64,000 bases of DNA from an uncultured Actinomycetota bacterium (GCA_963708625.1 CAVPSV010000004.1:321960-385959); one strand, 5' to 3'. Counted from the stretch's first letter, positions 6,271 to 27,925 are shown. The notes: generated by a model from the sequence alone, not told the origin. Numbers and translations are program-made.

Positions 6271-6850
6271 ATGGACGGCCACGGACGTCCGAGCGAGCTG
6301 CCCGGCCCGCATCGAGGCGCTGCTGGACGAACTGAGCGCAACTCGGCGACCCGGCGGTCAGCGAGCGGGCCGAGGAACTCGTGGCCGCCGTCGTCACTCT
6401 GTACGGCGCCGGACTCGAACGCATCGTCGAGCTGCTCGGCGCAGCGAGCCGGACGGCGCCGAGCTGCTGCGCCGGCTGTGCCGGCGACGACCTGGTCGCG
6501 AACCTGCTGATGCTGCACGAGCTGCACCCCGACGACGTCGGACGCGCGGGTACAGGCCGCGCTGGACAAGGTCCGGCCGTACCTCGGCTCGCACGCCGGC
6601 GGCATCGAGTTTCTCGGCGTCGATGACGACGGCGTGGCGCAGCTGCGGCTGGAGGGCAGCTGCGACGGCTGCGCCGGCTCGACCGCGACCGTGCAGAACG
6701 CGGTCGAGCGGGCCGTGCTCGAGGCGGCCCCGGAAGTGGTCGAGCGTCGAGGTCGAGGGCATGGTCGAGCCGAAGCCGGCGACTGCCGGTCTGCTGCAGA
6801 TCCGGCATGCGCTGCCCGGACGGCGACTGGCTGAGGCGGTCGGCGCGTGA
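6271..6850 (+). pseudogene. NifU C-terminal-domain (Nfu-like) hydrogenase accessory protein, at least 4 frameshifts
   Basis: Segments RIEALLDEL / LGDPAVSERAEELVAAVVTLYGAGLERIVELLG / VQAALDKVRPYLGSHAGGIEFLGVDDDGVAQLRLEGSCDGCAGSTATVQNAVE / VEVEGMVEPKPATAGLLQI. These lie in three different frames. Confidence 0.55.
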
Positions 6851-6885
6851 CGCAGGCCGACCGACCCGTTCGGAGTCCTGCGCCG

Positions 6886-7506
6886 GGTGCTGCAGCCGCG
6901 CGAGCGGCCGCGGCCCGGCGAGGCGTGCGAGATGTGCGGCGAGCCGATCGCCGAGCCGCACAGCCACGTCGCGAGCCTCAGCGAGCGGCGGCTGCTGTGC
7001 ACCTGCCGCGCCTGCTACCTGCTGTTCACCGCCCAGGGCGCCGGCGCGCCGGCGGCTGCGCGCTGTGCCGGAGCGGGTCGTGCTGGCCAGCGACTTCACC
7101 TTCACCCAGGCGCAGTGGGACGACCTGGCGATTCCGGTCGATCTCGTGTTCCTGTTCCAGCAGAGCGACGTCGACGGACGTCGAGGCCCCGACGGCGCTC
7201 GTCGCCTGCTACCCGAGCCCGGCCGGCGCGACCGAGTCCGAGCTCGACCTCGTCGGCCTGGGCCGACATCGTCGCGGACAACCCGACCCTGGCCGACGTC
7301 GAGCCCGACGTCGAGGCGGTGCTGGTCCGCCGCAACGGCGAGCGGCGACTTCACCTGCCTCGTCGTGCCGATCGACGCCTGCTACGAACTCGTCGGCATC
7401 GTGCGCCAGTACTGGTCCGGCTTCCAGGGCGGCGCCGAGGTGTGGCAGCGCATCGACGACTTCTTCGCCCGGCTGCACACTCGAGCCCGCGGCCCGACGG
7501 GGCTGA
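6886..7506 (+). pseudogene. conserved Cys-rich hydrogenase-associated protein, frameshifted
   Basis: GEACEMCGEPIAEPHSHVASLSERRLLCTCRACYLLFT then RAVPERVVLASDFTFTQAQWDDLAIPVDLVFLFQQSDVD... then GDFTCLVVPIDACYELVGIVRQYWSGFQGGAEVWQRIDDFF. Each piece is in a different frame. Confidence 0.45.
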
Positions 7507-7507
7507 C

Positions 7508-9570
7508 ATGCCTGAGCTCGAGTTCGCCTGCACCGGCGCGCACCCGGACCATCGCGCGGCCGCGCCGACGATCTCGCTGCGCCTGCACATCACCGAAACG
7601 ACCGGCGACGACCGGTGCACGCGCTCGTCGCTGCGCACCCAGATCCGCATCGAACCGCGCAAGCGCCGCTACGACGACACCGAAGCCGAGGCGATGCGCG
7701 ACCTGTTCGGCGAGCGGGCACGGTGGGGCGACACGCTCAAGCCGCTTGCAGCTCGCCTTCGTCAACCAGGTGGTGCCGAGCTTCACCGGCGAGACCGACG
7801 ATCGACGTGGCGCTGCCGTGCAGCTACGACTTCGACGTCGCGGCGAACAAGTACCTCTACGCGCTCGACGACGGCGAGATGCCGCTGCTGCTGCTGTTCA
7901 GCGGCACCGTATTCACCGTCGGGCGCGAACGGCTTCTCGGTCGTAGCCGGTGCCCGTGGGACAAGGAGGCCACCTTCCGGCTGCCGGTCGGCGTCTGGAA
8001 GCAGACGATGCAGCTGCACTTCCCCGGCACGCGCCTGGCTGCGGCTGAGCGAGCGAGACCTTCGACGCGTTGCACCGCTACCGCACCGACCAGCAGCTGC
8101 GTCAGCTGGGACGACGCGATCGACCGGCTGCTGAAGGAGGCCGAGCGAGTGAGCGCGCACGCGTGCACGGCACTCGCGGCGCATGCGATCGCCGACACCG
8201 TGCTGTTCGAGGGCTACATGCTCTACCCGTATCGCGCCAACGATCCGAAGAACCGGGTGCGCTGGCAGTTCGGCGTGCTGGCGCCGCCCGCGTTCGCCGC
8301 CGCGCGACCCGTCCGAGCGCGTCGTTCCTGCAGGCCGACTGCCTGCTCGAGGGCGCGATGTCGAGCTCGAGCGTGCAGGTGCGGTTCCTGCACGTGCAGC
8401 GGCGCACGGTCGAGCGTCTCGACGGCGACGGGTTCCGCGACGTCGACTCCCTCGACGTCGGCGACGCCACCTACCTGCCGTGGGACGAGGCGGTCGTCAC
8501 GAATCCGAGACGACGTTCCGGCTCGCCGACCTCGACGCGGCCGAAGCAGACCACCGCGATCGCGCGCCGATGCCGCGGCCGAGATCGAGGCGCTGTCCGA
8601 CGCCGACGGAGCGATCGTCGGCCGGCTGGCCCGTGCGCGCACGCGCCGCTACCGGACGCGCTGTCGTGCGACGGCCGAGCCGCTGCCCGGTCCCTACGGC
8701 GTCCGGCGGCTGCGGCTGCGGCTGGAGAACACCACGCCATGGAGCCGAGCACTGGATCGGGTGCGCCGGACCGTCCCGACGCGCTGCGGCACGCCCTGGT
8801 CGCCGCGCACCTGCTGCTGTCGGCTGCGCGGCGGCGCGTTCATGTCGCTGATCGACCCGCCGGAATGGGCATCCGGCTACGCCGGCGGCCTGCGAGCAGA
8901 TCGGCGCCTTCCCGGTGCTGGCCGGGCCGGCCGGTGACGCGTCGATCTGTGCTCGCGTCGCCGATCATCCTGTACGACCACCCGAGGTCGCGCCGGAAAG
9001 CGCGTCGCAGTTCTGCGACGCGACCGAGATGGACGAGATGCTGACGCTGCGCACGCTGACGCTGACCGACGAGGAGAAGCGACTACGTGCGCGGCAGCGA
9101 CGCCCGCGGCGCGGCACTGGTCGACGAGGTCGACAACCTGCCGCCCGAGCTGATGGACCGCCTGCACGGCGCGATCCGCTCGATGACGCAGCGTGGCCCG
9201 GCCCGCGGCGGCGACGCCGGCGGCCGTTGCGCCGGACGAGACCCCGCCGTTCGCGAATGCTCCGTTCCTGAACGCGGAAGAGGACGCACGCTTCGACCCG
9301 GAGACCGACGTGGTCATGGTGCAGGGCGTGCCGCTGTCGAAGGGCGCGTCGGTGCGGCTGCGCCCGGGTACGCGGCGCACCGACGCGCAGGACATGTTCC
9401 TGGACGGCCGCAGCGCCACCGTCGAGGCCGTGCTGTTCGACGTCGACGGCGCTACCGCACCTCGCGGTCACGCTGGACGACCTGGTCGAGCTGTCCGAAC
9501 TGGGCTACAACCCGCACGGCCGCTTCCTGTACTTCGCGCCGGACGAGGTCGAGCCGATCGAAGGTGGACG
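7508..9570 (+). pseudogene. one or more conserved hydrogenase-cluster proteins of unknown function, heavily fragmented by frameshifts
   Basis: Frame-hopping conserved-looking segments: MPELEFACTGAHPDH...IRIEPRKRRYDDTEAEAMRDLFGERARWGDTLKPL; LPCSYDFDVAANKYLYALDDGEMPLLLLFSGTVF; RCPWDKEATFRLPVGVWKQTMQLHFPG; LFEGYMLYPYRANDPKNRVRWQFGVLAPP; TEMDEMLTLRTLTLTDEEKRL; ALVDEVDNLPPELMDRLHGAI; VAVTLDDLVELSELGYNPHGRFLYFAPDEVEPIEGG. Gene boundaries not resolvable by eye. Confidence 0.35.
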
Positions 9571-15203: not shown

Positions 15204-15965
15204 CGCGGCCCCCCGATCCGAGTCAGGGCCGAGCCGGCGTGCACCAGCAGCAGATCCCCTGGATCGACGTCGCCGATCAGTGTGGTGTCGACGTGTTCGT
15301 CGCCCTGCGCGGTGCGCACCAGCGCGGCGCCCAACGGTCCGTCGCGGCCCACGATCACTTCCGCCGGGACGACCTTCGTCGCTGCAGGTGATGCAGACCT
15401 CGTCGGTGCAGTCGGAGTCACGCTCGACGAGCAATCCGGGATGCTCGAAACACACGTGCGTCAGCTCCCACAGCAGGTGATACATCAGTACGAAGCGGCC
15501 GGTCGCGGGCGCCAGCGGGTTGGCGTCGTCGATCCACAGCACCTGGTCGGCCGCGCCGGCCGGCGGGCGTTCGCCCGAGCCGATCCAGACGCTCAGCGCC
15601 CCCCAGGCGGGCGTGCGGCGCATCAGGTCCTGCACCGCCCGGTCGCCGGCACCGGCCACTGCGATGACGATGTCGCCAGGACGGACCGAGACTCGCGCCT
15701 GAGCGACGACGTCCCCCGAGGTGAGCGCGAATGCCGGCAGCGCCCGTTTGCCCACGATGACGGGGTGGACGAACTCGACGGCCATGTGGTGCGCGTGTGG
15801 CTCCCACTGCGGCGCGACGCACCACATGGTGGCGCCGGCGTGATAGCGGCGTGCGAGCGAGAGCGCGGCCGCGGCCAGGTCCTCGGCCAGGCCACGGTCC
15901 AGGATGTCCGGGGTGATGCCGGAAGAGACGTCCAGCTCGGGCGTCGTTACGAAATCGACGGTCAC
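15200..15965 (-). pseudogene. hydrogenase-associated protein with C-terminal HupF/HypC-like domain, frameshift near 15420-15450
   Basis: The N-terminal ~190 aa (MTVDFVTTPELDV...HVCFEHPGLL...DEVCITCSDEG) read through into the SIS gene. The real C-terminus is in another frame (15200..15421): AEVIVGRDGPLGAALVRTAQGDEHVDTTLIGDVDPGDLLLVHAGSAL, with the stop just before the SIS start. Confidence 0.45.
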
Positions 15966-18360
15966 GGTGCTACCCCCTGTTGGCGTGCATAGCCGACGGC
16001 ACCGATCACGGCTTGGCCGAGCGCGAGACCCCCGTCGTTGGGCGGGACGAGGCGGTGGGTCAGGACTCGCAGGCCGCTGCCCTCGAGGCGTCGGCGGCAG
16101 AGGTCCAGCAGCAGGACGTTCTGGAAGACGCCGCCGGTCAGCCCGACCAAATCTTGATCATGTGAATCGCATACCCGGATCGCGACCGCGGTAACCGCGT
16201 CGGCAACGGCTACGTGGAACCAGTGCGCAAGCGTGGCCGTGTCCACGCCCGCACGCAGGCCCGCCACCAGGCCGCGAACGACCGGTGCGTAGTCCAGCCG
16301 TCCGTCCTCGATCGCGAACGCCCACGGCGGCACGGCGCTGGCCGGGTCCGCGACGGCCGGGTCCGCGCCGGCGGCTGCACTCGCAGCCAAGATCTCGAGT
16401 TCGATCGCGGCCTGCGCCTCGTAGCCGATTCGCTGGCGCACGCCGAGGATCGAGGCGACGGCGTCGAAGAGCCTGCCCATGCTCGAGCACGGCACCGTCG
16501 CACGCCCGGACGTCAGCTGCGACCGGACCGCGGCGAGTTCGCGCGGCTCGCAGGCGGCAACCGGCGCCACGTCGTCATCCCACGCGACATCGCTGGCGGC
16601 GAGGTAGGCCAGCGCGGCTCGACAGGGGTTGCGCACCGCCGCGTCCCCACCGGGCAGATCCACGGTGCGCAGGTGGCCGACCCGCTCGTAGCTGGTCACG
16701 TCCGCGGACACCTGCAGGAACTCGCCACCCCAGATGGTGCCGTCGTCCCCGTAGCCGGTGCCGTCGAACGCGACGCCCAGGGCCGATACCCCGAGCAGGT
16801 TGTGTTCGGCCAGCAGGGACACCACATGTGCGTGATGGTGCTGGACGAGTCGCAGCTGCGGCTCGCCCGGCCGACCGGTGTGGCGCTGCGCCCACTCGCG
16901 GGTCAGGTACGCGGGGTGCGCGTCCACCGCGACGATCTCGGGAGCGAGGCGGTGCAGCGTGGTCAGCTGATCCACCGCGCGCTCGAAGGCGCGCAGCGTG
17001 TCGAGGCTGCCCATGTCCCCGACGTGCGCCGAGCAGAACGCGTTCGTCGCGTCCACGAGGCAGAAGGTGTTCTTCAGCTCGCCACCGACGGCAAGCGTCG
17101 GGGGCAGCGCGTGGCCCAATGGCACCGGCAACGGCGCCAAGCCACGCGAGCGGCGGATCGGCAACTCGCGGCCATCGAAGACACGCACCACGCTGTCGTC
17201 GCACGGCACGTGAATGCCACGGTCGTGGGTGAGTACGGCGTCGGCGAGCGAGGGCAATCGCCGCTGCGCGTCGATGTCGTCGAAGCACAGCGGCTCGTCG
17301 CTGACGTTCGCACTCGTCAGCACGAGCATGCCGGCGCCGGTGCGCCGGCGTCGGGCACCGGCGCGAGCAACAGATGGTGGATCGGGCTGTAGGCGAGCAT
17401 CACCCCGAGCAGCGGGTTGCCCGGCGCCACACTGTCCGCGACCGGCGCGTCCGGCCGGCGGCGGAGCAGGACTATCGGCCGGGCGCGGCTGGTCAGCACC
17501 TGAGCTTCGGCCTCGTCGATGACAGCGAGGCGGTGCGCGGTGGGCAGGTCACGCACAAGCAGCGCGAACGGCTTCTGGTCGCGCGACTTCCGCTCCCGCA
17601 GTCGTGCCACCGCAGCCGGGTCGTCCGCGCGGCAGGCGAGGTGATACCCACCGATACCCTTGACGGCGACGATCTGCCCGTCGGCCAGCGCGTGCTGAGC
17701 GTGGGCCAACGCGGAGTCGCCGACGGCTGCCGTCGCGCCGTCGCGCTCGAAACGAAGTACCGGCCCGCAGTTCGGGCAGGCGACGGGCTGGGCATGGAAG
17801 CGGCGATCGGCCGGATTCGCGTACTCGCGCGCGCAGTCGGCACACATGGCAAAGTCCGCCATGGTTGTGGCGGGCCGGTCGTAGGGCAGATCGCGAATGA
17901 TCGTCAGCCGCGGTCCGCAATCCGTGCAGGTGATGAAGGGATGGCGGTAACGGCGGTCGGTCGGGTCGAACAACTCGGCGAGGCAGTTGTCGCAGGTGGC
18001 CACGTCGGGCGGGATGAGCGTTCGCGCGCCCTCGGCCGCACGGCTGGCGACGATGCGGAACCCGCTGTCTTCGACCAGCGGTAGCGGCGTGCTGGTGACG
18101 GAGATGACGAACGCCATCGGCGGCGCATCGATGCGAACTCGGCGCTCGAACTCCGCCAGTAGCCCGGCCGGACCCTGCACCTCAGCGAAGACGGCCTCCG
18201 CGTCGTTGCCGACGAAGCCGCTGAGGCCTAGTTCGGTGGCCAACCGGTGGACGAATGGGCGGAAACCGACGCCCTGGACGACACCGGTTATCGAAAGCCG
18301 CGCCCGTTCTCGCGCTGCAGCATCCGGGCGGAAGGCGAGCGAGCGGGCCGTCGCGGTCAT
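15962..18360 (-). pseudogene. hypF: carbamoyltransferase HypF, one frameshift near 17320
   Basis: N-terminal part (17317..18360 frame): acylphosphatase VQGVGFRPFV, Zn fingers CDNCLAELFDP...CTDCGPR and CADCAREY...CPNCGP. C-terminal part (15962..17329 frame): YrdC/Kae1-like region ...VFQNVLLL.... Confidence 0.85.
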
Positions 18361-18516
18361 GTCGGCCGTTGGGCGTTGTGGTCTTGCACCGCGTCCGTGT
18401 GTTTTACGGATTCGGTGATAGGGAGAATCCCGCCGGTGCGGCAAATAGCCACTCACCCAACATAGGTAGACCGATCGTTCTCTGTCTAGACTCAATTTCA
18501 GGATCAGGAGTGCAGA

Positions 18517-19155
18517 TTGGCCAGCCAGCCGGAGACGAATGCGAGCGATTCGTCCGCGCGAGAGCGAATCCTCGATACGGCCTACGACCTGTTCGCGCGC
18601 CGCGGTATTCGCGATGTCGGGGTCGATGAGATCGTCGAGCGCGCCGGCATTGCGCGGGCGACGCTGTACCGCCATTTCAAGTCGAAGGACGAACTCGTCC
18701 TGGCGTTCCTGAGGCGACGCGAAGAACGCTGGACGTTCGGTTCGGTCGAAGCCGAGGCGCGCCGACGCGGCAAGACTCCGGAGGGGCGGCTCCTGGCGAT
18801 CTTCGACGTCTTCGACGAGTGGTTTCACCGGGGCGACTTCGAAGCCTGCTCGTTCGTGAACGTGCTGTTCGAAATGCGTCCGAGCCACCCGCTCGGGCAG
18901 GCGAGCATCCAACACCTGGCGAACATCCGAGGCATGGTCGAGCGGCTGGCCACCGAAGCCGGGCTGGCCGACGTCACCGAGTTCAGCAGGTCGTGGCACA
19001 TCCTGATGAAGGGCTCGATCGTCGCTGCGACCGAAGGTGACCTCCGGGCCGCGCGTCGCGCGCAACAGATGGCGAAGACGCTGATCGCGAAACACGGCGG
19101 CCATCTCCCCGAGCAGCCCGCCCAGCTACCCGTAAGTACCGTGACGCATAGATGA
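18517..19155 (+). CDS. TetR-family transcriptional regulator, divergent from hypF
   Basis: ERILDTAYDLFARRGIRDVGVDEIVERAGIARATLYRHFKSKDELV is a TetR_N HTH. Confidence 0.8.
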   Translation: MASQPETNASDSSARERILDTAYDLFARRGIRDVGVDEIVERAGIARATLYRHFKSKDELVLAFLRRREERWTFGSVEAEARRRGKTPEGRLLAIFDVFDEWFHRGDFEACSFVNVLFEMRPSHPLGQASIQHLANIRGMVERLATEAGLADVTEFSRSWHILMKGSIVAATEGDLRAARRAQQMAKTLIAKHGGHLPEQPAQLPVSTVTHR

Positions 19156-19828: not shown

Positions 19829-20494
19829 TCAGTCGGACGGGATCATCGACCGCAGGCCGTCCACATCGTCGATGATGATCTGCCGCCGTCCCAGCGAGAT
19901 GACACCGCGGCTCACCAGTCGCTGCAGCACCTGATTCACCGTCGGCCGGGCCGCGCCGGTCATCATCGCCAGATCACCCTGCGACAGCGGGATCACCGCG
20001 GCGCCCGGTGTGCCGCCGTAGATGTCGGCCAGGGCGATCAGCCGCCGGTAGACGCGGCGGTCCACGCCGAAGTACAGCGCCTCCAGCAGCTGCCGACTCA
20101 GATCCTCCACGCGCTGGGCGAGTGCGGCGACCACCAGCCCGTCGATCTCCGGGTGCGAGTTGCGCAGCGTCGCGAAGGCCGTGCCGGCCAGCGCCAACGT
20201 CTGGCCGGGGGTCAATGCCGCGACGGTGGCGCTGCGCCGCGGCGTCTGACCCGACTGCAGCAGCGCGAGCTCACCGAAGAAGTCGCCGCCGGAGAGCACG
20301 TTGACGGTCAGCCGGTCACCGTTGGCCGCGGTGACGTGCACCGCGAACAGGCCACTGTCGATCAGGTGCATGCTGTCGGCGGGATCACCCTCGTGAAACA
20401 CCACCTCGCCGCGCGCGAACGTGCGCCGGCGTGCAGAGCTCAGCACCTCTTCGCGCGCCTGCGCCGGCAGCGTGTCCAGCAGCGGCCACTGCAT
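19829..20494 (-). CDS. Crp/Fnr-family cNMP-binding transcriptional regulator
   Basis: cNMP-binding fold (FFGELALL...RSATVAALT) plus C-terminal HTH (SQGDLAMMTGAARPTVNQVLQRL). Its ATG overlaps the stop of the upstream cyclase gene (TGATG). Confidence 0.75.
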   Translation of the reverse strand: MQWPLLDTLPAQAREEVLSSARRRTFARGEVVFHEGDPADSMHLIDSGLFAVHVTAANGDRLTVNVLSGGDFFGELALLQSGQTPRRSATVAALTPGQTLALAGTAFATLRNSHPEIDGLVVAALAQRVEDLSRQLLEALYFGVDRRVYRRLIALADIYGGTPGAAVIPLSQGDLAMMTGAARPTVNQVLQRLVSRGVISLGRRQIIIDDVDGLRSMIPSD

Positions 20495-23400
20495 CAGCGC
20501 ACCCACATCTGGTCGAAGAACACGCCGAGCACCGAGCTGCGGGTGTAGTTGTGCACCCTCGGCGAGAGGACGTCCACCCACGACGGCGTCACCAGGCCCA
20601 CCCACGCGGCCTGATCGATGAGTTGGCGGTCCAGCTGTGCCCAGGTGGCGGCAGCCGCGGCCGGTGAACTCGCCTGCTCCTGTTCGGCTCGTGCGGTGAG
20701 GGCGTCCAATGCCGGATCGCAGAACTCGCTGGGGTTCAGGCTTGCATCCGAATTCGGCACGAACCCCGAGCACTCGAACTGGGGCACGATGAAGTCCTCC
20801 GGATTGGGCGGTTCGGCGACCCAACCCGCAAAAGATGCCTGGACTTTGTTGGCGGAATTGCCGATGTAGCTGAAGTAGTCGTCCTTGGGGTAGACGACCA
20901 GCTTCGCTCGATACCCGAGCTGGTCAAGCGCGCCGACGACGTCCTGCATACCCGCCGCGGTCCTGGGTCCGGTGACAACATCCACGGCCATGCCTTTGGT
21001 GTGCGACTGGTCGACCAGGCGCTCGGCCGTCGGGAAGTCAGGCGCGGACCAGGCGCCGGCCGTGCCGGGCCGAAGCGTGTACGGGCAGTACGGGCGATAT
21101 CCCGGGAAGTTGGGCGGCAGCAGTTGGCAGGTCGGAATCGCCGGGGTGAACCAGTCGTCGGCCACCGCCTGCCGGTCGATCGCGTACGCAAGTGCGCGGC
21201 GTACCCGCACATCGTTGAACGGCGCGATCCGGGTGTTGAGCGCGACGCCGTGCGCCGCCTCGGTCGGGGTCAGGTACAGCCGCACGCCGAAGCGAGCTTG
21301 CAGTTGCGCCAGTGGCGCGGCGCCGCGCGCGTCGGCCCAGTCCGCCGATCCCGCCGCAACGCGGTTCACCGCGTCCTTGGTGTCCGCGCCGTTCGCGTCG
21401 ACGTTCCACGTGATCGAATCGGGATATCCCGCCGGCTGGGCGGCCGGGGACCACTCGTGGAAGGAGGGGTTGCGGCTAAGGACGATCTGTTTGCCGTCGT
21501 CTCGGGTGATCGCGTACGGCCCAGTTGCGGGGATGGGCTTGGCGCCCTGGTCAGCCAGCGGGGTCGCCGCGGGTGTGGCCACGGCGGCAGCCAGCAGATC
21601 CAGGAAGTCGCCGCTCGGCCGGTTCAGCGTTATCGCGACGGTGTCGGCGCCGGCGTCCGCGGTGACGCCCGAGATCGTGCACCGCTGCGTGGTACACGCC
21701 GAGGCGCCGACGATTTCCTGCGGCAGGCCGGGCAGGCCGCTGGCCACGATCCGCTCCAGCCCACGTTGCACGTCGGCGACGCTCACCACCGCCCCGGTCG
21801 ACCAGCGCACGCTGCCGCGCAGCTGAAATGTGTAGGTGCGGCCGCCGTTCGTCGGCTCGGGAATCGACGTCGCCAGGTCGGGCACCAACTCGCTGCCCTC
21901 CGCCCCATTCGCGTGGCGGAAGCCGACGAGTGCGTCGAAGCTGTCGTTGATCAGCCACAGCGTCCACGGGGTGCCGAAGTAGTCCGGGTCGACCGAACCA
22001 GGGTCCTGCCCGTCCACCGTGATCGATCCGCCGACGTGCCGCGCGGGGTCGATGGTGGTGGTGACCCACAGTCGCCCGCCTGAACTCACCAACGCGGTCG
22101 GAGTGGCTCCGGTGGGCACGGTGCGCACCGGGCGGCTGGACTTGGTGTCGAACTCCCTCAGCGATCGGGATCCCTCGCTGGCGACCCAGAGCGCAGTGCC
22201 GAGGACCGCGATCTTCGTCGGTTCCTCGGCCACCGGCACCGTCTCGGCCACCGAACCGGTGCCGACGTCGATGCGGGTCACGGTTGCGTCCAGATTGTTG
22301 GTCACCCAGGCGCTACTGCCGGAGACCGCGACATCGCGCGGGTCGTTGCCGACATGCACCGTCTGGGTCACCGTGCCGCTCGCCGGGTCGATCACGCTGA
22401 CCGTGTTCGAGGTGGCGTTCACGATCCAGACCGAGTGCGCGACCGCAATGCCGTCCGGGCCGTCGCCGACGCCGATGGTGGCCGTCACCGTGTCGTCGCC
22501 GGGATCGATGCGCGAGACGGTGCCGTCGGCGGTGTTGGTGACCCACACCGATCCGTCGCCCACCGCCAAGCCGGCCGGTGACGTACCGACGACGACGGTC
22601 TGGACCCCATACGTCGTGGGGTCGATGCGCGAGACGGTGCCGGAGCCACTGTTCGCCACCCACACCGAGTCGAAGCCGAAGGCCACTGCCGACGGTGCCT
22701 GGCCGACGCTCACCGTGTTCGTGACGCGTTTGCTCCCGGTGTCGATCCGGCTGATCGTGTTGGCGCCGGTATTGGCGGTCCAGATCGCGCCGGGCGCCGC
22801 GGCCGCTGCCGTGGGTGACAGGTCGACGCCGAGTTGAGCCACGATGTGGCCGTTCTTCGGGTCGATGACACCGACCGCATTCTCGGCCACGCGGTGCAGG
22901 TCGTGCGACGTTCCGGACGTCAGCACCAGTCCGACGGCGGTGCCGGCCACGGCAATGCCGACCGCGGCACCGATCGCGACTGCCCGGCGGCCGCGCCACC
23001 ACCGGGGTCGTCGGTCGCCGGTGCGAGGGAGCGGACGAGCGGCGGCGATGAGTGCGCTCATCTGTCGCGCCGGGTCGTGTCCGTCCGGCACGACCCGCAC
23101 CATGCGGACCGCGTCGCGCAGGCCCTTCACATCCACGGTGCCGCCCGCGACGTAGCGGATGCCGTCGATCGTGCGAGCCAGGTGCGTCACCTCGTGGCTG
23201 GCCAGCGTCTCGCCCGCCTTGGCCAGGCCGCACAACCGGGCCGCGAGGTTGAGCGCGCCGCCGCGGTATCCGTCCGCGCTGCGAACCGCCTCGCCGACGT
23301 CGACGCCGATACCGACAGTCAGCGGCAGGGAGGGATCAGTCACCGTTTCCGTGACGAACCGCTGTTGCAGCGCCACCGCGGCGCGCAGCGACAACCTGGG

Positions 23401-23676
23401 CGAGGCGAACACGCACATGGCCTCGTCGCCACGCAGTTCGAACACCGATCCGCTGAATTGCGCCACTACGTCGCGGACCATGTCGGCGAACCTGGCGGTG
23501 AGCCGGGCGGCCGCCTCGTCGCCGTTGTTCTGGGTGAATGTCGTGTAACCGCGGATATCGGCAAAGAGAAATGTCAGGAGTTCAGACGATTCCGCTCCCG
23601 GTTTCCCGGTTTCGGGTTCGTTCGGCGGGCCGTTGGCGGCGCCGTCCGGCGACATGGCGCCGAGTATGGACCACAT
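20494..23676 (-). CDS. class III adenylate/guanylate cyclase - TM - YVTN/NHL beta-propeller - family-5 solute-binding-protein domain fusion
   Basis: N-terminus LLTFLFADIRGYTTF...RGDEAMCVFASP (cyclase catalytic core). One TM helix (AVAIGAAVGIAVAGTAVGLVL). About 7 repeats of the type VSVGxxPxxxAxxxxxxWVxNxxxxTVSRID. C-terminal SBP_bac_5-like region (PGYRPYCPYTLRPG...). Confidence 0.75.
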   Translation of the reverse strand: MWSILGAMSPDGAANGPPNEPETGKPGAESSELLTFLFADIRGYTTFTQNNGDEAAARLTARFADMVRDVVAQFSGSVFELRGDEAMCVFASPRLSLRAAVALQQRFVTETVTDPSLPLTVGIGVDVGEAVRSADGYRGGALNLAARLCGLAKAGETLASHEVTHLARTIDGIRYVAGGTVDVKGLRDAVRMVRVVPDGHDPARQMSALIAAARPLPRTGDRRPRWWRGRRAVAIGAAVGIAVAGTAVGLVLTSGTSHDLHRVAENAVGVIDPKNGHIVAQLGVDLSPTAAAAAPGAIWTANTGANTISRIDTGSKRVTNTVSVGQAPSAVAFGFDSVWVANSGSGTVSRIDPTTYGVQTVVVGTSPAGLAVGDGSVWVTNTADGTVSRIDPGDDTVTATIGVGDGPDGIAVAHSVWIVNATSNTVSVIDPASGTVTQTVHVGNDPRDVAVSGSSAWVTNNLDATVTRIDVGTGSVAETVPVAEEPTKIAVLGTALWVASEGSRSLREFDTKSSRPVRTVPTGATPTALVSSGGRLWVTTTIDPARHVGGSITVDGQDPGSVDPDYFGTPWTLWLINDSFDALVGFRHANGAEGSELVPDLATSIPEPTNGGRTYTFQLRGSVRWSTGAVVSVADVQRGLERIVASGLPGLPQEIVGASACTTQRCTISGVTADAGADTVAITLNRPSGDFLDLLAAAVATPAATPLADQGAKPIPATGPYAITRDDGKQIVLSRNPSFHEWSPAAQPAGYPDSITWNVDANGADTKDAVNRVAAGSADWADARGAAPLAQLQARFGVRLYLTPTEAAHGVALNTRIAPFNDVRVRRALAYAIDRQAVADDWFTPAIPTCQLLPPNFPGYRPYCPYTLRPGTAGAWSAPDFPTAERLVDQSHTKGMAVDVVTGPRTAAGMQDVVGALDQLGYRAKLVVYPKDDYFSYIGNSANKVQASFAGWVAEPPNPEDFIVPQFECSGFVPNSDASLNPSEFCDPALDALTARAEQEQASSPAAAAATWAQLDRQLIDQAAWVGLVTPSWVDVLSPRVHNYTRSSVLGVFFDQMWVR

Positions 23677-23771
23677 TTCTCACGCGTGCCCGCCCGTGCC
23701 CGAGGACGTGGCCCGAGAAGGTGCCCGAGGACCGACGCGGCACGACGCTCAAACCGGACGTCCAGGCTCGA

Positions 23772-25214
23772 TCATTCTTTGGCGAGCAGGGCGAGTTCCT
23801 CGCGCAGCCATTGGATGAGCAGGTGCAGATCGGGCATCCGGTCCCGATCGGCGATCAGGCCGAAGTCCAGATGACCGCAATAGCTCATCACGGTGATGTT
23901 CAGTCCCATGCCGTCGGTGATCACCGAGATCGGATAGTTCGCGACCAATCGCGCGCCGGCCAGGTAGAGCGGCAGCTGCGGCCCGGGCACGTTGGAGATC
24001 ACCAGATTCCAGGGCGGGCGACCCGCGGCCGAGGTGGCCAGCGCGAACGTCGAACGTGCGGCCAGGGCGAATACCGCGGGCGGGATGAAATGGTTGGCGT
24101 CCTGCAACAGCTCCGCCGGCAGCGCGCGGTGGCGTTGCTTCATGTCGCCGAGCGCGTCGTGCGTCAGGCGCAACCGCTCGACCGGATCCGCTACCTGGGT
24201 GAACAGCGGCGTGGTCTGCAGCATGATCCGGTTGCCGTAGGTACCGGTCTGTTCTTCGGTGCGGACCGAGATCGGGATCTGTGCCACCAACGACTCGGCC
24301 GGCAGCGCGTCGTGTTCGATCAACCAGCGCCGCACCACACCCGCACACAGCGCGACGACGACGTCGTTCACGGTCGTCCCGTACCGATCCTTGACCGCCT
24401 TGACGTCGGCGAGGCTCAACTGCCCGAAGGCAACCTTGCGATGCCCCGAAACGCGGCCGGAGAACGGGGTGCGCGGCGCGGGCAGTCCCGGCAAGCTCTT
24501 GTGCCGCGGCTTGCGCAGCGCCACCTCCCGGGTGCGCTTGACCACCTGGCCGAACGTGCCGACGCCCGGCACCACCGCCAGCGAGCGCACCTCGGCCAGA
24601 TTCGGTAGCGCGGCCGGCGCCGAGCGGGCAAAGCGCACCGGGAACTTCAGTGCACCGACCACCCCGCGAACAAGCATCTCGCCGCTACCGGGCATGCGGT
24701 CGAAGCGAGATGACGGTTCCGGCACCTCGCGACCCTCGGGCGTCAGGTCCAGCAGCGAGGCCATGATCTCGGCCCCGGACAGACCGTCCACCACCGCGTG
24801 ATGGATCTTCGTCAGCACCGCGGCGTGGCCGTCCTCCAGACCCTGGATCAGGTACAGCTCCCACAACGGTCGCCGGCGATCAAGCGGCCGCGCGACGATG
24901 CGCGCCACCTGTTCGGCGAGCTGCGCCTCGTTGCCCGGGGCGGGCAGCGCGATCTCCCGCACGTGGAACTCCAGATCGAAGTCCGGGTCGTCCACCCAAT
25001 AGGGGTAGTCGAGATTCAACGGAACCTCGGCCAGCCGCCACCGCAACGGCGGGACCAGCGGCAACCGCTGTCCGATCAGCTCCTGCACCGCGGCCAGATC
25101 GAGACCACCCGGACGAGTGGACGGATCGAGAATGGCCAATCCACCGACATGCCCGTATTGCGAGGCAGTCTCCATGGCGAGAAATTGCGCATCGAGGCTG
25201 GTCAGCTGCCGCAT
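23772..25214 (-). CDS. wax ester synthase / diacylglycerol acyltransferase (WS/DGAT, Tgs family)
   Basis: Catalytic HHxxxDG motif (KIHHAVVDGLSG). N-terminus MRQLTSLDAQFLAMET. Confidence 0.8.
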   Translation of the reverse strand: MRQLTSLDAQFLAMETASQYGHVGGLAILDPSTRPGGLDLAAVQELIGQRLPLVPPLRWRLAEVPLNLDYPYWVDDPDFDLEFHVREIALPAPGNEAQLAEQVARIVARPLDRRRPLWELYLIQGLEDGHAAVLTKIHHAVVDGLSGAEIMASLLDLTPEGREVPEPSSRFDRMPGSGEMLVRGVVGALKFPVRFARSAPAALPNLAEVRSLAVVPGVGTFGQVVKRTREVALRKPRHKSLPGLPAPRTPFSGRVSGHRKVAFGQLSLADVKAVKDRYGTTVNDVVVALCAGVVRRWLIEHDALPAESLVAQIPISVRTEEQTGTYGNRIMLQTTPLFTQVADPVERLRLTHDALGDMKQRHRALPAELLQDANHFIPPAVFALAARSTFALATSAAGRPPWNLVISNVPGPQLPLYLAGARLVANYPISVITDGMGLNITVMSYCGHLDFGLIADRDRMPDLHLLIQWLREELALLAKE

Positions 25215-25384
25215 GCCGTCCACCGTGTCCCGCGACGCGCCATCTGTCCAGCGAGGGTGGTGGTGGGCTAGCACTCCTCCCGAACATGGGGCTGACTTCC
25301 TGGTGCCGGGCAATCAGCGCGAACAGACTGTGCGGATGGCGACGTCGCGCTCGGCGCACGCGCAGCTGCCGGCCGGGTGAGCCG

Positions 25385-27925
25385 ATGTCGCTGCGGTTCG
25401 GCTGGTACGGCCTGCGCGTCAACCTGCGCCGGCGCCTGGGCGGCTTGCTTGCCGTGGTCCTGCTCGTCGGACTGATCGGCGGCACCGCGATGGCCTCGAT
25501 CGCCGGCGCCCGGCGCACCCAGTCGTCATACCCCGAGTTCCTGCGCAGCACGAACCCGTCCGCCCTGGTGGTGTCGTCCTTCGGCGCCAACACGTCGCCG
25601 TCCTCGAGCAACGCCGCCAACACCGTGACCGAGCAGAGCATGGCGCGGCTGCCGGATGTCGCCTCGGTCCGCAGCGTGATCGCGTTCACCAGCCTGCCGC
25701 TGGACGCATCGGGCAAGCCGGACCCGACGAACGTCCCGATGCTCGCGGCTGCAGGCAGCTTCGACGGGCTGGCATTCACACAGGACCGGGTCGCGGTACG
25801 GCACGGACGATTACCGAACCTGGCTCGATCGGATGAGTTCGTTTCGACGGTCGACGGTGCGCACCTGCTCGGGATGCAGATCGGCCAGGTGAAGTCGTTC
25901 GGGGTGTATACGTCCGCGCAGGCAGTGCTGCCGGGGTTCGGCACGGCTCGTGTCGCGCCCTACTACACGATCACCGCGCGGCTGGTCGGCACCGTGGTGC
26001 TGAACAACCAGCTGATACAGGACGACATCGACCGCTATCCGGCGTTCCTGTTCTTCACGCCGGCGACGACGCGGCACCTGCTCGCGGCGGCGAATGCCAC
26101 GCTGTTCGGCCTGCAGTTGCGCCACGGCGATGCCGACGTGCCTGCGGTCGAGCAGGCGTTCGTACATTCCGTTCCCGCGGGTTCCACCTACGAGTTCCAC
26201 GAAACGGCGAGCATCGAGGCGCGGGTCGAACGGGCACTGCGACCGGAGAGCATCGCGCTCGGGGTCTTCGGCCTCATCGCCGGGGTGGCAGCCCTGGTCA
26301 TCGGCATCCTCGCCTTGTCGCGCCAGCTGCAACGTGACGACAACTCAGCCGCCGTGCTGCGCGCGCTCGGCGCGGGGCCGTGGCTGGGTGTCGCCGACCA
26401 GATGATCGGCCTGGTCGCGGCGATCGTACTCGGGGCGATCGCGGCGGGCGTCGTGGCCGTCGCGCTGTCCCCACTCGCCCCGGTCGGCCCGGTACGGCCC
26501 GTCTACCCCCACCCCGGTGCCTCGTTCGACGCCACGGTGATCGGCCTCGGCGTGCTGGTCGTGGTCGTCGTCCTGGGTGGTTCGCTGGCCTTCCTGGGCT
26601 GGCGTTCGACGCGGCGAGGAGCTGTCGATCCGAATCGCGGCGCTTCGGCACGGCCGTCCGGCATCGCGCGCGCCGCGACGGCGGCGGGGTTGCCGGCCTC
26701 GGTCTGCGTCGGCATCCGCTTCGCACTCGAGACCGGCACCGGCCGGGTCGCGGTACCGATGCGCTCGGCCGCGGTGGGCGCGGTCCTCGCCCTGGTCACC
26801 GTAGTCAGCACGCTGACGTTCGGCAGCTCGCTGCACACGCTGGTCTCCCGCCCGGCGCTCTACGGCTGGAACTGGAACTACGTGCTGAACGCATCACAGG
26901 CCGTTCCAGCGCAAACACTGAAGGCGCTCGGTACCGATCCGGACGTGCTCGCCTGGGGTGACGCCACCGAAGCCGAGATGCAGCTGGACGGGCACAACGT
27001 GCCGGCGCAGATCATGACGCTGCCCGCGGCCGTCACCCCACCGATTCTGACCGGGCACGCGCTGCAGGCCGGCAACCAGATAGTGCTCGGCGCCGCGACG
27101 CTGGCGGAGCTGCACAAGCGCGTCGGTGACGTAGTCACGCTGACCTACGGATCGCCGCAGAACGCACCGATCTACGTGCCGCCGACGCGACTGATCATTG
27201 CCGGGACGGCGGCGTTGCCGGCGATCGGCTACTCCAGCTTCATCGCTGATCACACCTCGATGGGAGTGGGCGCACTCGTCTCGGACGCGATCGAGCCTGC
27301 GGCGTTCATCAAGGCGACGACCAACCCCGATCCGCTATTGAACGGGCCGCAGTTCGCGATGGTGCAGCTGCGCCCGGGCGTCTCGGCCAAGGCCGGCCTG
27401 GCGGACCTGCAGCGCCTGTCCAATGCCGCGGACGCCGCCTTCGCCGCGGACCCGAACGCGGTCGGCAACACCGTGACGCCGCTCGGGGTGCAGCGGCCGG
27501 CCGAGATTGTGAACTATCGGTCCACCGGTAACACGCCGCTGCTGCTGGCAGCCGGCCTGGCCGGTGGTGCCACGCTCGCGCTCGGACTGACCATCGCATC
27601 GTCGGTACGTCGCCGCCGGCGCGATCTCGCGGTGCTGAAGGCGCTCGGTTTCACGCCGCGGCAGCTCGTCTCCGTCGTTGTCTGGCAGGCGATGGTGCCG
27701 GCACTCGTCGGCGTAGCCATCGGGGTTCCCGTCGGCATCGCCGCGGGCCGGCTGTTGTGGAATGCGTTCGCCCGGACGATCTTCGTCGTACCGGAGCCGA
27801 GCGTGCCGCTGCTCGGCGTCGTCATCGCGGCCGTCGCCTCGCTGGCGTTGGCCGCACTTGTCGCCGTTGTGCCCGGGCTGGTGGCCAGCCGGATCCCGAT
27901 CGCAGAGGCCCTGCGGGCCGAATGA
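25385..27925 (+). CDS. ABC transporter permease with two FtsX domains (MacB/DevC-like), no adjacent ATPase
   Basis: ~845 aa. N-terminal TM plus large extracytoplasmic domain plus FtsX 4-TM bundle, duplicated. C-terminal block LAVLKALGFTPRQL.... Confidence 0.7.
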   Translation: MSLRFGWYGLRVNLRRRLGGLLAVVLLVGLIGGTAMASIAGARRTQSSYPEFLRSTNPSALVVSSFGANTSPSSSNAANTVTEQSMARLPDVASVRSVIAFTSLPLDASGKPDPTNVPMLAAAGSFDGLAFTQDRVAVRHGRLPNLARSDEFVSTVDGAHLLGMQIGQVKSFGVYTSAQAVLPGFGTARVAPYYTITARLVGTVVLNNQLIQDDIDRYPAFLFFTPATTRHLLAAANATLFGLQLRHGDADVPAVEQAFVHSVPAGSTYEFHETASIEARVERALRPESIALGVFGLIAGVAALVIGILALSRQLQRDDNSAAVLRALGAGPWLGVADQMIGLVAAIVLGAIAAGVVAVALSPLAPVGPVRPVYPHPGASFDATVIGLGVLVVVVVLGGSLAFLGWRSTRRGAVDPNRGASARPSGIARAATAAGLPASVCVGIRFALETGTGRVAVPMRSAAVGAVLALVTVVSTLTFGSSLHTLVSRPALYGWNWNYVLNASQAVPAQTLKALGTDPDVLAWGDATEAEMQLDGHNVPAQIMTLPAAVTPPILTGHALQAGNQIVLGAATLAELHKRVGDVVTLTYGSPQNAPIYVPPTRLIIAGTAALPAIGYSSFIADHTSMGVGALVSDAIEPAAFIKATTNPDPLLNGPQFAMVQLRPGVSAKAGLADLQRLSNAADAAFAADPNAVGNTVTPLGVQRPAEIVNYRSTGNTPLLLAAGLAGGATLALGLTIASSVRRRRRDLAVLKALGFTPRQLVSVVVWQAMVPALVGVAIGVPVGIAAGRLLWNAFARTIFVVPEPSVPLLGVVIAAVASLALAALVAVVPGLVASRIPIAEALRAE

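Follow-up and report, generated by a model that had tools for sequence, protein, structure and literature searches.

An uncultured soil actinobacterium encodes a two-gene signalling unit, in which a membrane receptor cyclase is followed by a messenger-binding regulator of the Crp type. We propose that the pair is a two-gene operon that would act as a one-step transmembrane signalling pathway, and we put the probability of this reading at roughly 0.55. Its product would be cGMP, alone or mixed with cAMP, rather than the cAMP of the adenylate cyclase suggested by a first-pass annotation of the same DNA. All coordinates refer to the window, that is, the whole 64,000-nt stretch of DNA analysed.

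Gene structure and a putative leaderless promoter

The receptor-type class III nucleotidyl cyclase gene is the longest ORF at the locus (20494..23676, minus strand) and, as first described, spans 1060 aa. Its TGA stop (20496-20494) shares one nucleotide with the ATG of the following gene (20494-20492), and the junction, ...GTGCGC TGATG CAG..., bears out the stop/start overlap reported earlier (20492..20496, minus strand). The second gene (19829..20494, minus strand) encodes a Crp-family cNMP-binding transcription factor of 221 aa. A longer, 331-aa ORF starting at TTG over-extends this gene: orthologues conserve the N-terminus MQWPLL(D/E)(T/S)LP of the 221-aa protein. Flanking the pair are a WS/DGAT gene, a DinB-like gene and, on the other strand, an FtsX permease gene. 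At least one gene in the window, hypF, is frameshifted, showing that assembly errors or pseudogenes are present there.

Translation of the cyclase probably begins at the second ATG (M8, 23655..23653), which would give a protein of 1053 aa. Seven nucleotides 5′ of this ATG lies a −10-like hexamer, CATACT (23663..23668, minus strand), the putative promoter of a leaderless transcript. CATACT is found exactly 6 nt before an in-frame ATG in each of the five genomic orthologous loci linked to Crp (L001, L002, L003, L005 and L014), at the same distance in L027 and L060, and at 7 nt in L033; CATAAT replaces it at the same position in L016, L026, L046 and L056. Apart from this hexamer, the upstream regions of the compared loci could not be aligned, and their comparison revealed no conserved operator upstream of the operon. 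From the conservation of CATACT 6-7 nt ahead of the second ATG, we suggest that the transcript is leaderless and that translation starts at 23655; the cyclase-Crp operon is probably transcribed as a leaderless mRNA.

Architecture of the receptor

The N-terminal position of the class III cyclase catalytic domain (residues 29-197; 23086..23592, minus strand) was recognized correctly at first pass. Guanylate_cyc (PF00211) matches residues 29-190 with 26.0 bits, a weak score that nonetheless exceeds the cut-off of 21.9, and the closest solved relative, Ma1120, matches residues 32-197 (73 bits; E 1e-18 to 3e-19). The domain is followed by a single transmembrane (TM) helix (residues about 232-254; 22915..22983, minus strand), where Kyte-Doolittle hydropathy reaches its maximum of 2.23, every other segment being at or below 1.6. 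An Arg-rich stretch, RTGDRRPRWWRGRR, immediately precedes the helix. The flanking K/R residues (8 on the N-terminal side, 2 on the C-terminal side) give an N-in/C-out orientation; hydropathy and charge therefore agree with the topology proposed earlier, with the cyclase in the cytoplasm and the propeller and solute-binding protein (SBP) domain outside. The AF2 model of the receptor (pLDDT 89.2, pTM 0.75) is disordered only at residues 1-28 and 217-257, the low confidence of the latter indicating a flexible linker; apart from this linker, no HAMP or coiled-coil transducer was seen in the modelled receptor.

Outside the membrane, a YVTN-type beta-propeller occupies residues about 262-542 (22051..22893, minus strand; TIGR02276, PF21783 and PF21959). 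TIGR02276 matches the YVTN/YNCE repeats in five stretches (111 bits), and DSSP assigns 28 strands to this region of the AF2 model, in seven groups of four, in keeping with the roughly seven YVTN/NHL-type blades first estimated. The remainder of the protein is a family-5 (cluster C) SBP domain (residues about 548-1060; 20497..22035, minus strand). What had been called an SBP-like domain is full-size: SBP_bac_5 (PF00496) matches residues 596-971 with 154.6 bits over profile positions 1-365 of 368, and Foldseek aligns the fold with those of the peptide binders OppA2 (2wop), MppA, DppA and YliB at TM scores of about 0.8, 1uqw being among the matches. With phmmer, the entire domain matches 8upi (8e-29) and OppA2 (1e-26). 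It contains six family-invariant cysteines (C661, C666, C850, C864, C969 and C986), and an acidic residue, E955, stands at the GW-x-x-D position, which is D in 24 of 52 family members. The domain would bind an extracellular small molecule, probably of peptide- or amino-acid-like character.

One ectodomain, several outputs

The same full-length architecture is encoded at no fewer than 549 genomic loci, all from uncultured soil Actinomycetota, which supplies the orthologous fusions that the first-pass annotation had proposed to look for. Of the 120 best homologues, about 100, with lengths of 1030-1090 aa, span 97-100% of the query. These independent homologues, with the genomic loci, effectively refute the notion that loss of a stop codon or faulty assembly has joined a cyclase gene to a gene for a secreted propeller-SBP protein here, a notion for which the frameshifted hypF in the same window might be cited. 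The TM helix, moreover, falls exactly between the output half and the ectodomain half in all output types, and AF2 is confident over both halves.

Nor is the fusion a rarity. A large actinobacterial receptor family carries the same propeller and SBP5 ectodomain, always behind one TM helix, on SARP wHTH+BTAD domains, on Ser/Thr kinases (for example P0093 of Pedococcus bigeumensis) and on two other cyclase subtypes. SARP, Ser/Thr kinase and cyclase outputs are, as far as is known, all dimerisation-activated, and the attachment of one ectodomain through one TM helix to such varied outputs points to ligand-controlled dimerisation. The statement that no propeller + SBP5 cyclase had been characterised held up, in that our literature search found no paper describing this architecture.

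NCBI and JGI name such proteins 'ABC transporter substrate-binding protein' or 'peptide/nickel transport system SBP', and both the strong SBP_bac_5 match and the fold would suit a membrane-tethered transporter component whose N-terminal domain is incidental. We consider this very unlikely. Opp/Dpp-type permease or ATPase genes, which would be encoded near a transporter SBP, are absent as conserved neighbours from 80 loci and absent from the window flanks, and the 80 loci of the wider family share no other conserved neighbour. Furthermore, the cyclase domain is the best-conserved portion of the receptor in the family alignment, with all catalytic residues invariant, and the ectodomain is also joined to the other signalling outputs.

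Pairing with a Crp gene is limited to one clade, its base included, in which 7 of 11 close relatives have the regulator, always adjacent and in non-syntenic contexts; the other four, and most of the wider family, have no Crp neighbour. In the window and in five genomic loci the two genes overlap or are separated by at most 4 nt (TGATG in L002 and L003, GTGA in L014, gaps of 2 nt in L001 and 4 nt in L005), and in L163 the distance is 38 nt. The flanks of the Crp-linked loci are not syntenic. The self-contained cyclase-Crp module envisaged at first pass occurs only within this clade and does not extend to the wider family.

Cyclase specificity and the Crp-like regulator

The cyclase retains the metal-binding residues Asp40 and Asp84 together with Asn143, Arg147 and Lys184, all of which are invariant in a 52-sequence alignment, and its domain is modelled with pLDDT >90. 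The catalytic machinery is intact, and activity as a dimer is predicted. The top structure match is not wild-type Ma1120 but 5d0g, its K101E/D157G/A167Y mutant. In the alignment to Ma1120 and this mutant, E80 falls at K101 and G136 at D157, so that Glu80/Gly136 specify the purine here, whereas adenylate cyclases read adenine N1/N6 with Lys and Asp. By sequence this is a guanylate cyclase pair: in guanylate cyclases Glu replaces the Lys and Cys, Ser, Thr, His, Ala or Gly the Asp, and Cya2 has E-G (PMC4215837). Glu/Gly is present in all cyclase-type homologues, and in all 80 genomic loci wherever the site is readable. Its invariance in a family diverged to about 40% identity argues for selection on the pair, and the original call of an adenylate cyclase is not sustained, since Lys/Asp is replaced in every parsable family member.

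The pair alone, however, is no proof of GTP selectivity. In Ma1120, K101E cost the enzyme 92% of its adenylate cyclase (AC) activity at pH 7.5, and guanylate cyclase (GC) activity rose about 4-fold; K101E/D157G was the best GC of the double mutants yet still preferred ATP (kcat/Km 1.92 (ATP) vs. 0.29 × 10^6; PMC4215837). These residues favor guanylate or dual specificity over adenylate-only activity.

The partner protein was correctly assigned to the Crp/Fnr cNMP-binding regulators. It has a cNMP domain (cNMP_binding PF00027, residues 24-113, 76.5 bits; 20156..20425, minus strand) and a wHTH (HTH_Crp_2 PF13545, residues 147-216, 58.5 bits; 19847..20056, minus strand); among proteins of solved structure, Mtb cAMP-Crp comes nearest (E 2e-21). 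Its phosphate-binding cassette, FGELALL...RRSA, is canonical, with the R-S of cAMP-binding CAP, which is replaced by RT in L005 and L014. The 221 residues of the regulator include no Cys and therefore no Fnr-type N-terminal Cys cluster for [4Fe-4S]. The base-contact motif is L-S, as opposed to T-S, T-T or T-N, and the recognition helix reads RPTVNQ in all six Crp orthologues, in place of the CAP-type R-E-x-x-x-R/K. No CAP-like site (TGTGA-N6-TCACA) was found near the operon, and such sites are fewer in the window than expected by chance.

A minority reading that nevertheless carries real weight is that of a sensor adenylate cyclase making only cAMP, next to an ordinary cAMP-Crp. cAMP signalling is pervasive in Actinomycetota, where, to our knowledge, cGMP signalling is not established, and the mycobacterial enzymes Rv0386 (Q/N) and Rv1900c (N/D) are active ACs despite non-canonical pairs. 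The CAP-like FGEL...RS cassette and the proximity to Mtb cAMP-Crp fit this reading, as does the ATP preference of Ma1120 K101E/D157G (PMC4215837). Against it stand the Glu for Lys, which is the defining GC substitution and had so marked an effect as K101E in Ma1120, the retention of E/G down to about 40% identity, and the L-S motif of the regulator.

Weak PADLOC matches (the cyclase domain to PycC, 39.6 bits; the Crp protein to Pycsar effector cNMP domains, about 44 bits) and a match to the uridylate cyclase 8jsz (E 0.028) could instead suggest a Pycsar-related pyrimidine cyclase, making cCMP or cUMP, with the cNMP-binding protein as its effector. We regard this as highly improbable. These matches come from the homology of class III and cNMP domains in general, and Ma1120 scores far better; the partner is a transcription factor of the wHTH type rather than a TIR or TM effector; and a cNMP-binding neighbour is lacking in most of the family. 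We also know of no Pycsar system with a large extracytoplasmic sensor.

A proposed one-step pathway

In the two-gene pathway that we favor, the receptor would be of type II, with a cytoplasmic cyclase, a TM helix bearing a flexible, Arg-rich juxtamembrane linker, and the propeller and a complete SBP5 domain outside. An extracellular ligand would bind the SBP5 domain, possibly with the help of the propeller, and binding would alter self-association of the ectodomain. Class III cyclases have two active sites, formed only across the dimer interface, so that altered self-association would switch catalysis on or off. With catalysis intact and Glu/Gly in place of Lys/Asp, the expected product is cGMP or a mixture of cGMP and cAMP, not cAMP alone. 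The messenger would then be sensed by the Crp-like regulator, which is coupled translationally to the cyclase and whose non-canonical base-contact motif and recognition helix lead us to expect a private regulon and an operator unlike TGTGA-N6-TCACA.

Relation to known systems

The M. avium protein Ma1120, orthologous to the Rv1120c pseudogene (4wp9, 5d15, 5d0g), is likewise a short class III domain with the metal Asps, Arg and Lys. However, this AC is soluble, bears K101/D157 and has A164 for Asn, whereas the present cyclase has E80/G136, Asn143, a TM helix and an ectodomain; the engineered EGY mutant matches it better than wild type does. Cya2, a guanylate cyclase of Synechocystis PCC 6803 (2w01; homology at E 8e-9), has the E-G pair in common (PMC4215837). 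In contrast, its GC-boosting Tyr corresponds to Ala146 here, the equivalent positions being assigned through the Ma1120 alignment, and its domain context and phylum differ.

A precedent for the operon is gcyB-gcyC-cgrA of Rhodospirillum centenum, which likewise combines cyclase genes, in that case for guanylate cyclases, with a dedicated Crp-family receptor, a Crp homologue activated by cGMP (PMC10187061). That system is alphaproteobacterial, and no propeller/SBP ectodomain is described in the review (PMC10187061). CgrA carries an RT motif and binds a CAP-like site, whereas the present regulator has RS (RT only in the two orthologues noted above) and RPTVNQ as its recognition helix.

Tentatively, and with the odds against it, the E/G propeller-SBP5 cyclases may be true receptor guanylate cyclases, and the pair may run from ligand to cGMP to a dedicated Crp-type cGMP receptor. 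Actinomycetota would thereby gain their first cGMP signalling pathway, which would belong to a larger, as yet undescribed actinobacterial receptor class in which one ectodomain serves cyclase, SARP and kinase outputs. The pathway would also be a bacterial parallel, arisen by convergence and with inverted topology, to the eukaryotic receptor guanylyl cyclases. In natriuretic-peptide receptor guanylyl cyclases, and likewise in the receptor-type adenylate cyclases of trypanosomes (GRESAG4.1), an extracellular PBP-like domain is joined through one TM helix to a class III cyclase that acts as a dimer inside the cell, and the GRESAG4.1 catalytic domain (1fx2) weakly matches the cyclase domain studied here. 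Their ectodomain, however, is N-terminal, with a type-I PBP (LivJ/ANF-receptor) fold and no propeller, whereas here the orientation is opposite and the binding domain is a cluster-C SBP5; the two are certainly of independent origin.

The topology itself is that of M. tuberculosis PknD, whose cytoplasmic output lies at the N-terminus and is linked by one TM helix to an extracellular NHL propeller, and which is activated by dimerisation; PknD differs in its 6-bladed propeller, its kinase output and its lack of an SBP domain. The SBP5 relatives OppA2 (S. clavuligerus), DppA, MppA and 8upi, for all their likeness in sequence (E 1e-26 to 8e-29) and fold, are free or lipid-anchored ABC components, whereas here the domain forms the C-terminus of a receptor without transporter genes nearby. 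Use of an extracytoplasmic SBP as a signalling sensor has an actinobacterial precedent in GlnH-GlnX-PknG of mycobacteria and corynebacteria (PMC6069109, PMC9769921). That pathway divides the roles of SBP, membrane transducer and kinase among three proteins, and its SBP is of another family.

Architecture of the receptor cyclase and its Crp partner

The receptor cyclase gene (longest ORF 20494..23676, minus strand, 1060 aa) and the Crp gene (19829..20494, minus strand, 221 aa) meet in the sequence GCGC-TGATG-CAG, in which the TGA of the former (20496-20494) overlaps the ATG of the latter (20494-20492), exactly where the first-pass annotation had placed a TGATG overlap (20492-20496). A longer Crp ORF with a TTG start (331 aa, 19829..20824, minus strand) shares 330 nt with the 3′ end of the cyclase gene; it is an over-extension, as the conserved N-terminus MQWPLL sets the start at ATG 20494.

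Each domain named in that annotation was recovered with Pfam and NCBIfam profiles: Guanylate_cyc at residues 29-190 (a weak match, 26.0 bits vs. a cut-off of 21.9), YVTN/YNCE propeller repeats (TIGR02276, 111 bits) and SBP_bac_5 at residues 596-971 (154.6 bits) in the cyclase ORF, and cNMP_binding (76.5 bits) and HTH_Crp_2 (58.5 bits) in the regulator. The sole hydrophobic segment (residues 232-254) is flanked by eight Lys/Arg on its N-terminal side and two on its C-terminal side, so the cyclase is predicted to be cytoplasmic and the propeller and SBP to lie outside, in agreement with the topology first proposed (cyclase inside, one TM helix, sensor outside). The AlphaFold2 model, which draws on 52 homologues, is confident (pLDDT 89.2, pTM 0.75) and has 28 propeller strands arranged in seven four-stranded blades, matching the earlier estimate of about seven; disorder is limited to residues 1-28 and the juxtamembrane/TM stretch 217-257.

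That the ORF might be two genes fused by a lost stop, the alternative raised at the outset, is ruled out by about 100 homologues of 1030-1090 aa that cover it at 97-100%, and by the presence of relatives at no fewer than 549 loci in a scan of species-representative genomes. The best 80 of these loci all come from metagenome-assembled genomes (MAGs), among them bins assigned to Jatrophihabitans, Gaiellales, Thermoleophilia, Solirubrobacterales and Acidimicrobiia, with one bin labelled Chloroflexota; close relatives include Jatrophihabitans-like MAGs. On the contig that encodes the homologue P0019 (locus L162), three short genes in a row (FGGY_N, FGGY_C, FGGY_C; 6687..8187) were called in place of one FGGY-family sugar kinase; this points to frameshifts in that assembly and illustrates how common indel errors are in such metagenomic sources.

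Public databases name the family ‘ABC transporter substrate-binding protein’, ‘YVTN family beta-propeller protein’ or ‘hypothetical protein’, and one JGI entry mentions a class 3 adenylate cyclase. Because the proteins are annotated by their SBP or YVTN parts and the cyclase domain is often missed, the family is invisible to surveys of cyclic-nucleotide signalling. By membership, the gene pair belongs to the class III cyclases, the SBP5 fold family, the YVTN propeller proteins and, for the regulator, the Crp superfamily. By analogy, the cyclase functionally resembles a receptor cyclase: the receptor guanylyl cyclases of eukaryotes and the receptor adenylate cyclases of trypanosomes are likewise built from an ectodomain resembling a binding protein, a single TM helix and a class III cyclase, although their orientation is the opposite and the binding-protein fold differs. 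PknD of M. tuberculosis has the same topology and a propeller, but no SBP. Our literature search found no published description of this receptor cyclase architecture.

Nucleotide specificity of the catalytic domain

Among solved structures the nearest is Ma1120, a minimal cyclase from M. avium (E = 1e-18), and the top-scoring chain is 5d0g, an engineered Ma1120 mutant (K101E/D157G/A167Y). In the pairwise alignment, E80 and G136 fall at the base-specifying positions K101 and D157 of Ma1120, R147 at the transition-state Arg (R168), N143 at A164, the position of the canonical transition-state Asn that Ma1120 lacks, and A146 at A167, where the bacterial guanylate cyclase Cya2 has Tyr. D40, D84, N143, R147 and K184 are invariant across the family alignment, as are E80 and G136. 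Among the best 80 genomic loci, Glu and Gly occupy every readable site (64 of 64 with a strict pattern; relaxed patterns confirmed the other 16, in three of which a truncation or frameshift has removed the first site). On these residues, the catalytic domain is predicted to be competent but not adenine-type. The label ‘adenylate’ given in the first-pass annotation is not supported: a test for the adenine pair of adenylate cyclases was negative, its place being taken by E80/G136.

Guanylate cyclases carry Glu at the position of the adenylate cyclase Lys, with a variable second position (C, S, T, H, A or G), and the E-G pair itself is present in Cya2 (PMC4215837). In Ma1120, K101E lowered adenylate cyclase activity by 92% at pH 7.5 and raised guanylate cyclase activity about 4-fold; K101E/D157G was the best guanylate cyclase among the double mutants and still preferred ATP (kcat/Km 1.92 vs. 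0.29 × 10^6; PMC4215837). Guanylate or dual specificity, as read from the pair, is a better prediction than adenylate specificity. The hundreds of receptor cyclases with this E/G pair would offer a directly testable entry to cGMP signalling in Gram-positive bacteria. They occur in abundant but uncultured soil Actinomycetota, and one clade has its own Crp-type receptor. To our knowledge, characterised examples of bacterial guanylate cyclases and cGMP receptors are very few.

Pairing of the cyclase with Crp

Among the best 80 loci, an orthologous Crp (60-67% identity) lies directly downstream only in the five closest cyclases (46-61%), at L001, L002, L003, L005 and L014. These junctions are as tight as that in the window, with TGATG in L002 and L003, GTGA in L014, and gaps of 2 nt in L001 and 4 nt in L005. 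A sixth Crp-linked case (protein P0011, locus L163) has a 38-nt gap. In a neighbour-joining tree, Crp-linked members are spread throughout one clade and at its base, so the ancestor of that clade seems to have had the pairing already, with losses or paralogues arising later. Synteny comparison did not find the window's flanking genes at related loci, which argues that cyclase and Crp move together as a cassette. As a gene arrangement, the first-pass annotation's self-contained cyclase-Crp module holds in the window, the five genomic loci and P0011/L163; it does not extend to the wider family or to the close relatives P0007, P0019, P0040 and L004, which are encoded without Crp.

The best 80 loci showed no conserved neighbour in the rest of the cyclase family. 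The sole recurrent neighbour, at 17 of the 80 and within three genes, is a large protein that begins with a class III cyclase domain (TFVFTDVEGST...DTQGDSFF) and continues into an ATPase/TPR-like region; it keeps no fixed position or strand, and its presence probably reflects how many copies of its family these genomes contain, not a functional link. A reciprocal metagenome search with Crp returned only relatives of 42-52% identity on short contigs (L081-L089), none of them near this cyclase.

Ligand and DNA recognition by the Crp partner

The nearest solved relative of the regulator is M. tuberculosis Crp (E = 2e-21). The FGEL...R-S cassette is kept (R-T in two orthologues), and L-S stands at the position of T127-S128 in CAP. 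An Fnr-type sensor is ruled out, as the protein has no Cys. Substitutions of CAP T127 may alter cGMP responsiveness. T127L/I, however, is described only among CRP* alleles in the literature we found, and one TT motif serves both cAMP and cGMP in Clr (PMC10127613), so a preference for cAMP or cGMP is not readable from this sequence. In R. centenum, cyclase genes share an operon, gcyB-gcyC-cgrA, with the gene of a cGMP-activated Crp homologue (PMC10187061), a precedent for such a pairing. That the cyclase makes cGMP and, jointly, that its partner is a cGMP-specific Crp is a tentative reading, to which we assign a probability of roughly 30%.

The recognition helix reads R-P-T-V-N-Q in all six Crp orthologues vs. 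R-E-T-V-G-R in CAP, and by this comparison the Crp partner would not read DNA as CAP does. TGTGA-N6-TCACA with up to two mismatches occurs at four sites in the 64-kb window, below chance expectation and never near the operon; nor is any inverted repeat upstream of the operon common to three or more of the six Crp-linked loci. A consensus sigma-70 scan gave no match, and no terminator was convincing.

The ectodomain as a reusable, putative sensor

The C-terminal domain is a complete cluster-C SBP, with Foldseek TM scores of about 0.8 to OppA2, MppA, DppA and YliB and end-to-end phmmer alignments to 8upi (8e-29) and actinobacterial OppA2 (1e-26). Its six invariant Cys would fit extracytoplasmic disulfides. 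8upi, OppA2 and GbpA have Asp in a GW-x-x-D motif, which we take to be the residue that binds the peptide α-amino group in DppA and OppA. Glu955 stands at this position here, and Asp in 24 of the 52 family members, which hints weakly at a ligand bearing an amino group.

Searched alone against 1.84 billion cluster representatives, the ectodomain (residues 258-1060) matched 2256 at E ≤ 1e-30. We classified the N-terminal regions of the best 150, which were SARP-type (wHTH + BTAD) in 62, class III cyclase in 46, Ser/Thr kinase in four and SARP plus cyclase in one; 29 had a short N-terminus (many probably truncated gene calls) and eight another, mostly a second cyclase subtype or fragments. Three cyclase subtypes occur among the fusions, the E/G pair only in the subtype studied here, and one TM helix separates output domain from ectodomain in each fusion type checked. 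A triple fusion, P0161 (1293 aa), carries SARP (2-252) and class III cyclase (274-412) ahead of the TM helix and propeller-SBP5 ectodomain, and is one receptor with two different outputs. Three E/G-type receptor cyclases (P0075, P0076 and P0092; 1363-1365 aa) continue for about 300 residues past the SBP with further YVTN-like repeats (TVSRVD, VSRLDP), probably a second propeller.

As far as we know, SARP, kinase and cyclase outputs are all switched by dimerisation, and in the AlphaFold2 model the cyclase is joined to the membrane by nothing more than a flexible, Arg-rich linker. The most economical mechanism would thus be ligand-controlled self-association of the ectodomain, which would switch the output. 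The module appears to be a widespread, uncharacterised sensor with three kinds of output (cyclic nucleotide, phosphorylation on Ser/Thr, and transcription controlled directly by SARP-type domains); once its ligand is identified, many receptors would be explained together.

Start site, promoter and flanking genes

A WS/DGAT wax-ester synthase/acyltransferase gene (23772..25313, minus strand) ends 96 nt before the longest-ORF ATG (23676), followed upstream by a divergent FtsX-type permease gene (25286..27925, plus strand, 879 aa). Neither is conserved beside related cyclases; the 5′ ends of their longest ORFs overlap by 28 nt. Elsewhere in the window, hypF (hydrogenase maturation carbamoyltransferase; 15962..19104, minus strand) is split into two overlapping ORFs with a break near 17317-17345. 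The break interrupts its Sua5/YrdC domain between profile positions 114 and 120, and the frame changes inside the GC-rich GCCGGCGCACCGGCGCCGGC, just 5′ of the conserved MLVLTSANVSDEP. The split is either a frameshift error or a pseudogene, so such errors or pseudogenes do occur in the window.

The hexamer CATACT (23668..23663, minus strand) precedes the second in-frame ATG (23655) by 7 nt. It is found exactly 6 nt before the ATG in all five genomic Crp-linked loci, whose upstream regions are otherwise unrelated, and as CATACT or CATAAT at the same spacing in a few more distant loci. In mycobacterial leaderless transcripts, the −10 hexamer lies at −12 to −7 relative to the start codon. Because the spacing of CATACT fits this geometry, we propose that the receptor cyclase starts at M8 (1053 aa) and that the cyclase-crp pair may be transcribed from a separate promoter and not depend on the WS/DGAT gene.

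Two core copies of a 12-nt direct repeat, GTCCTCGGGCAC, lie 25 nt apart (23693..23704 and 23718..23729, minus strand), some 41 and 66 nt ahead of the proposed start ATG 23655. The repeat is not conserved in front of the orthologous operons. Degenerate copies lie between and after the two, and the core CTCGGGCAC occurs four times in the window vs. 1.9 expected by chance.
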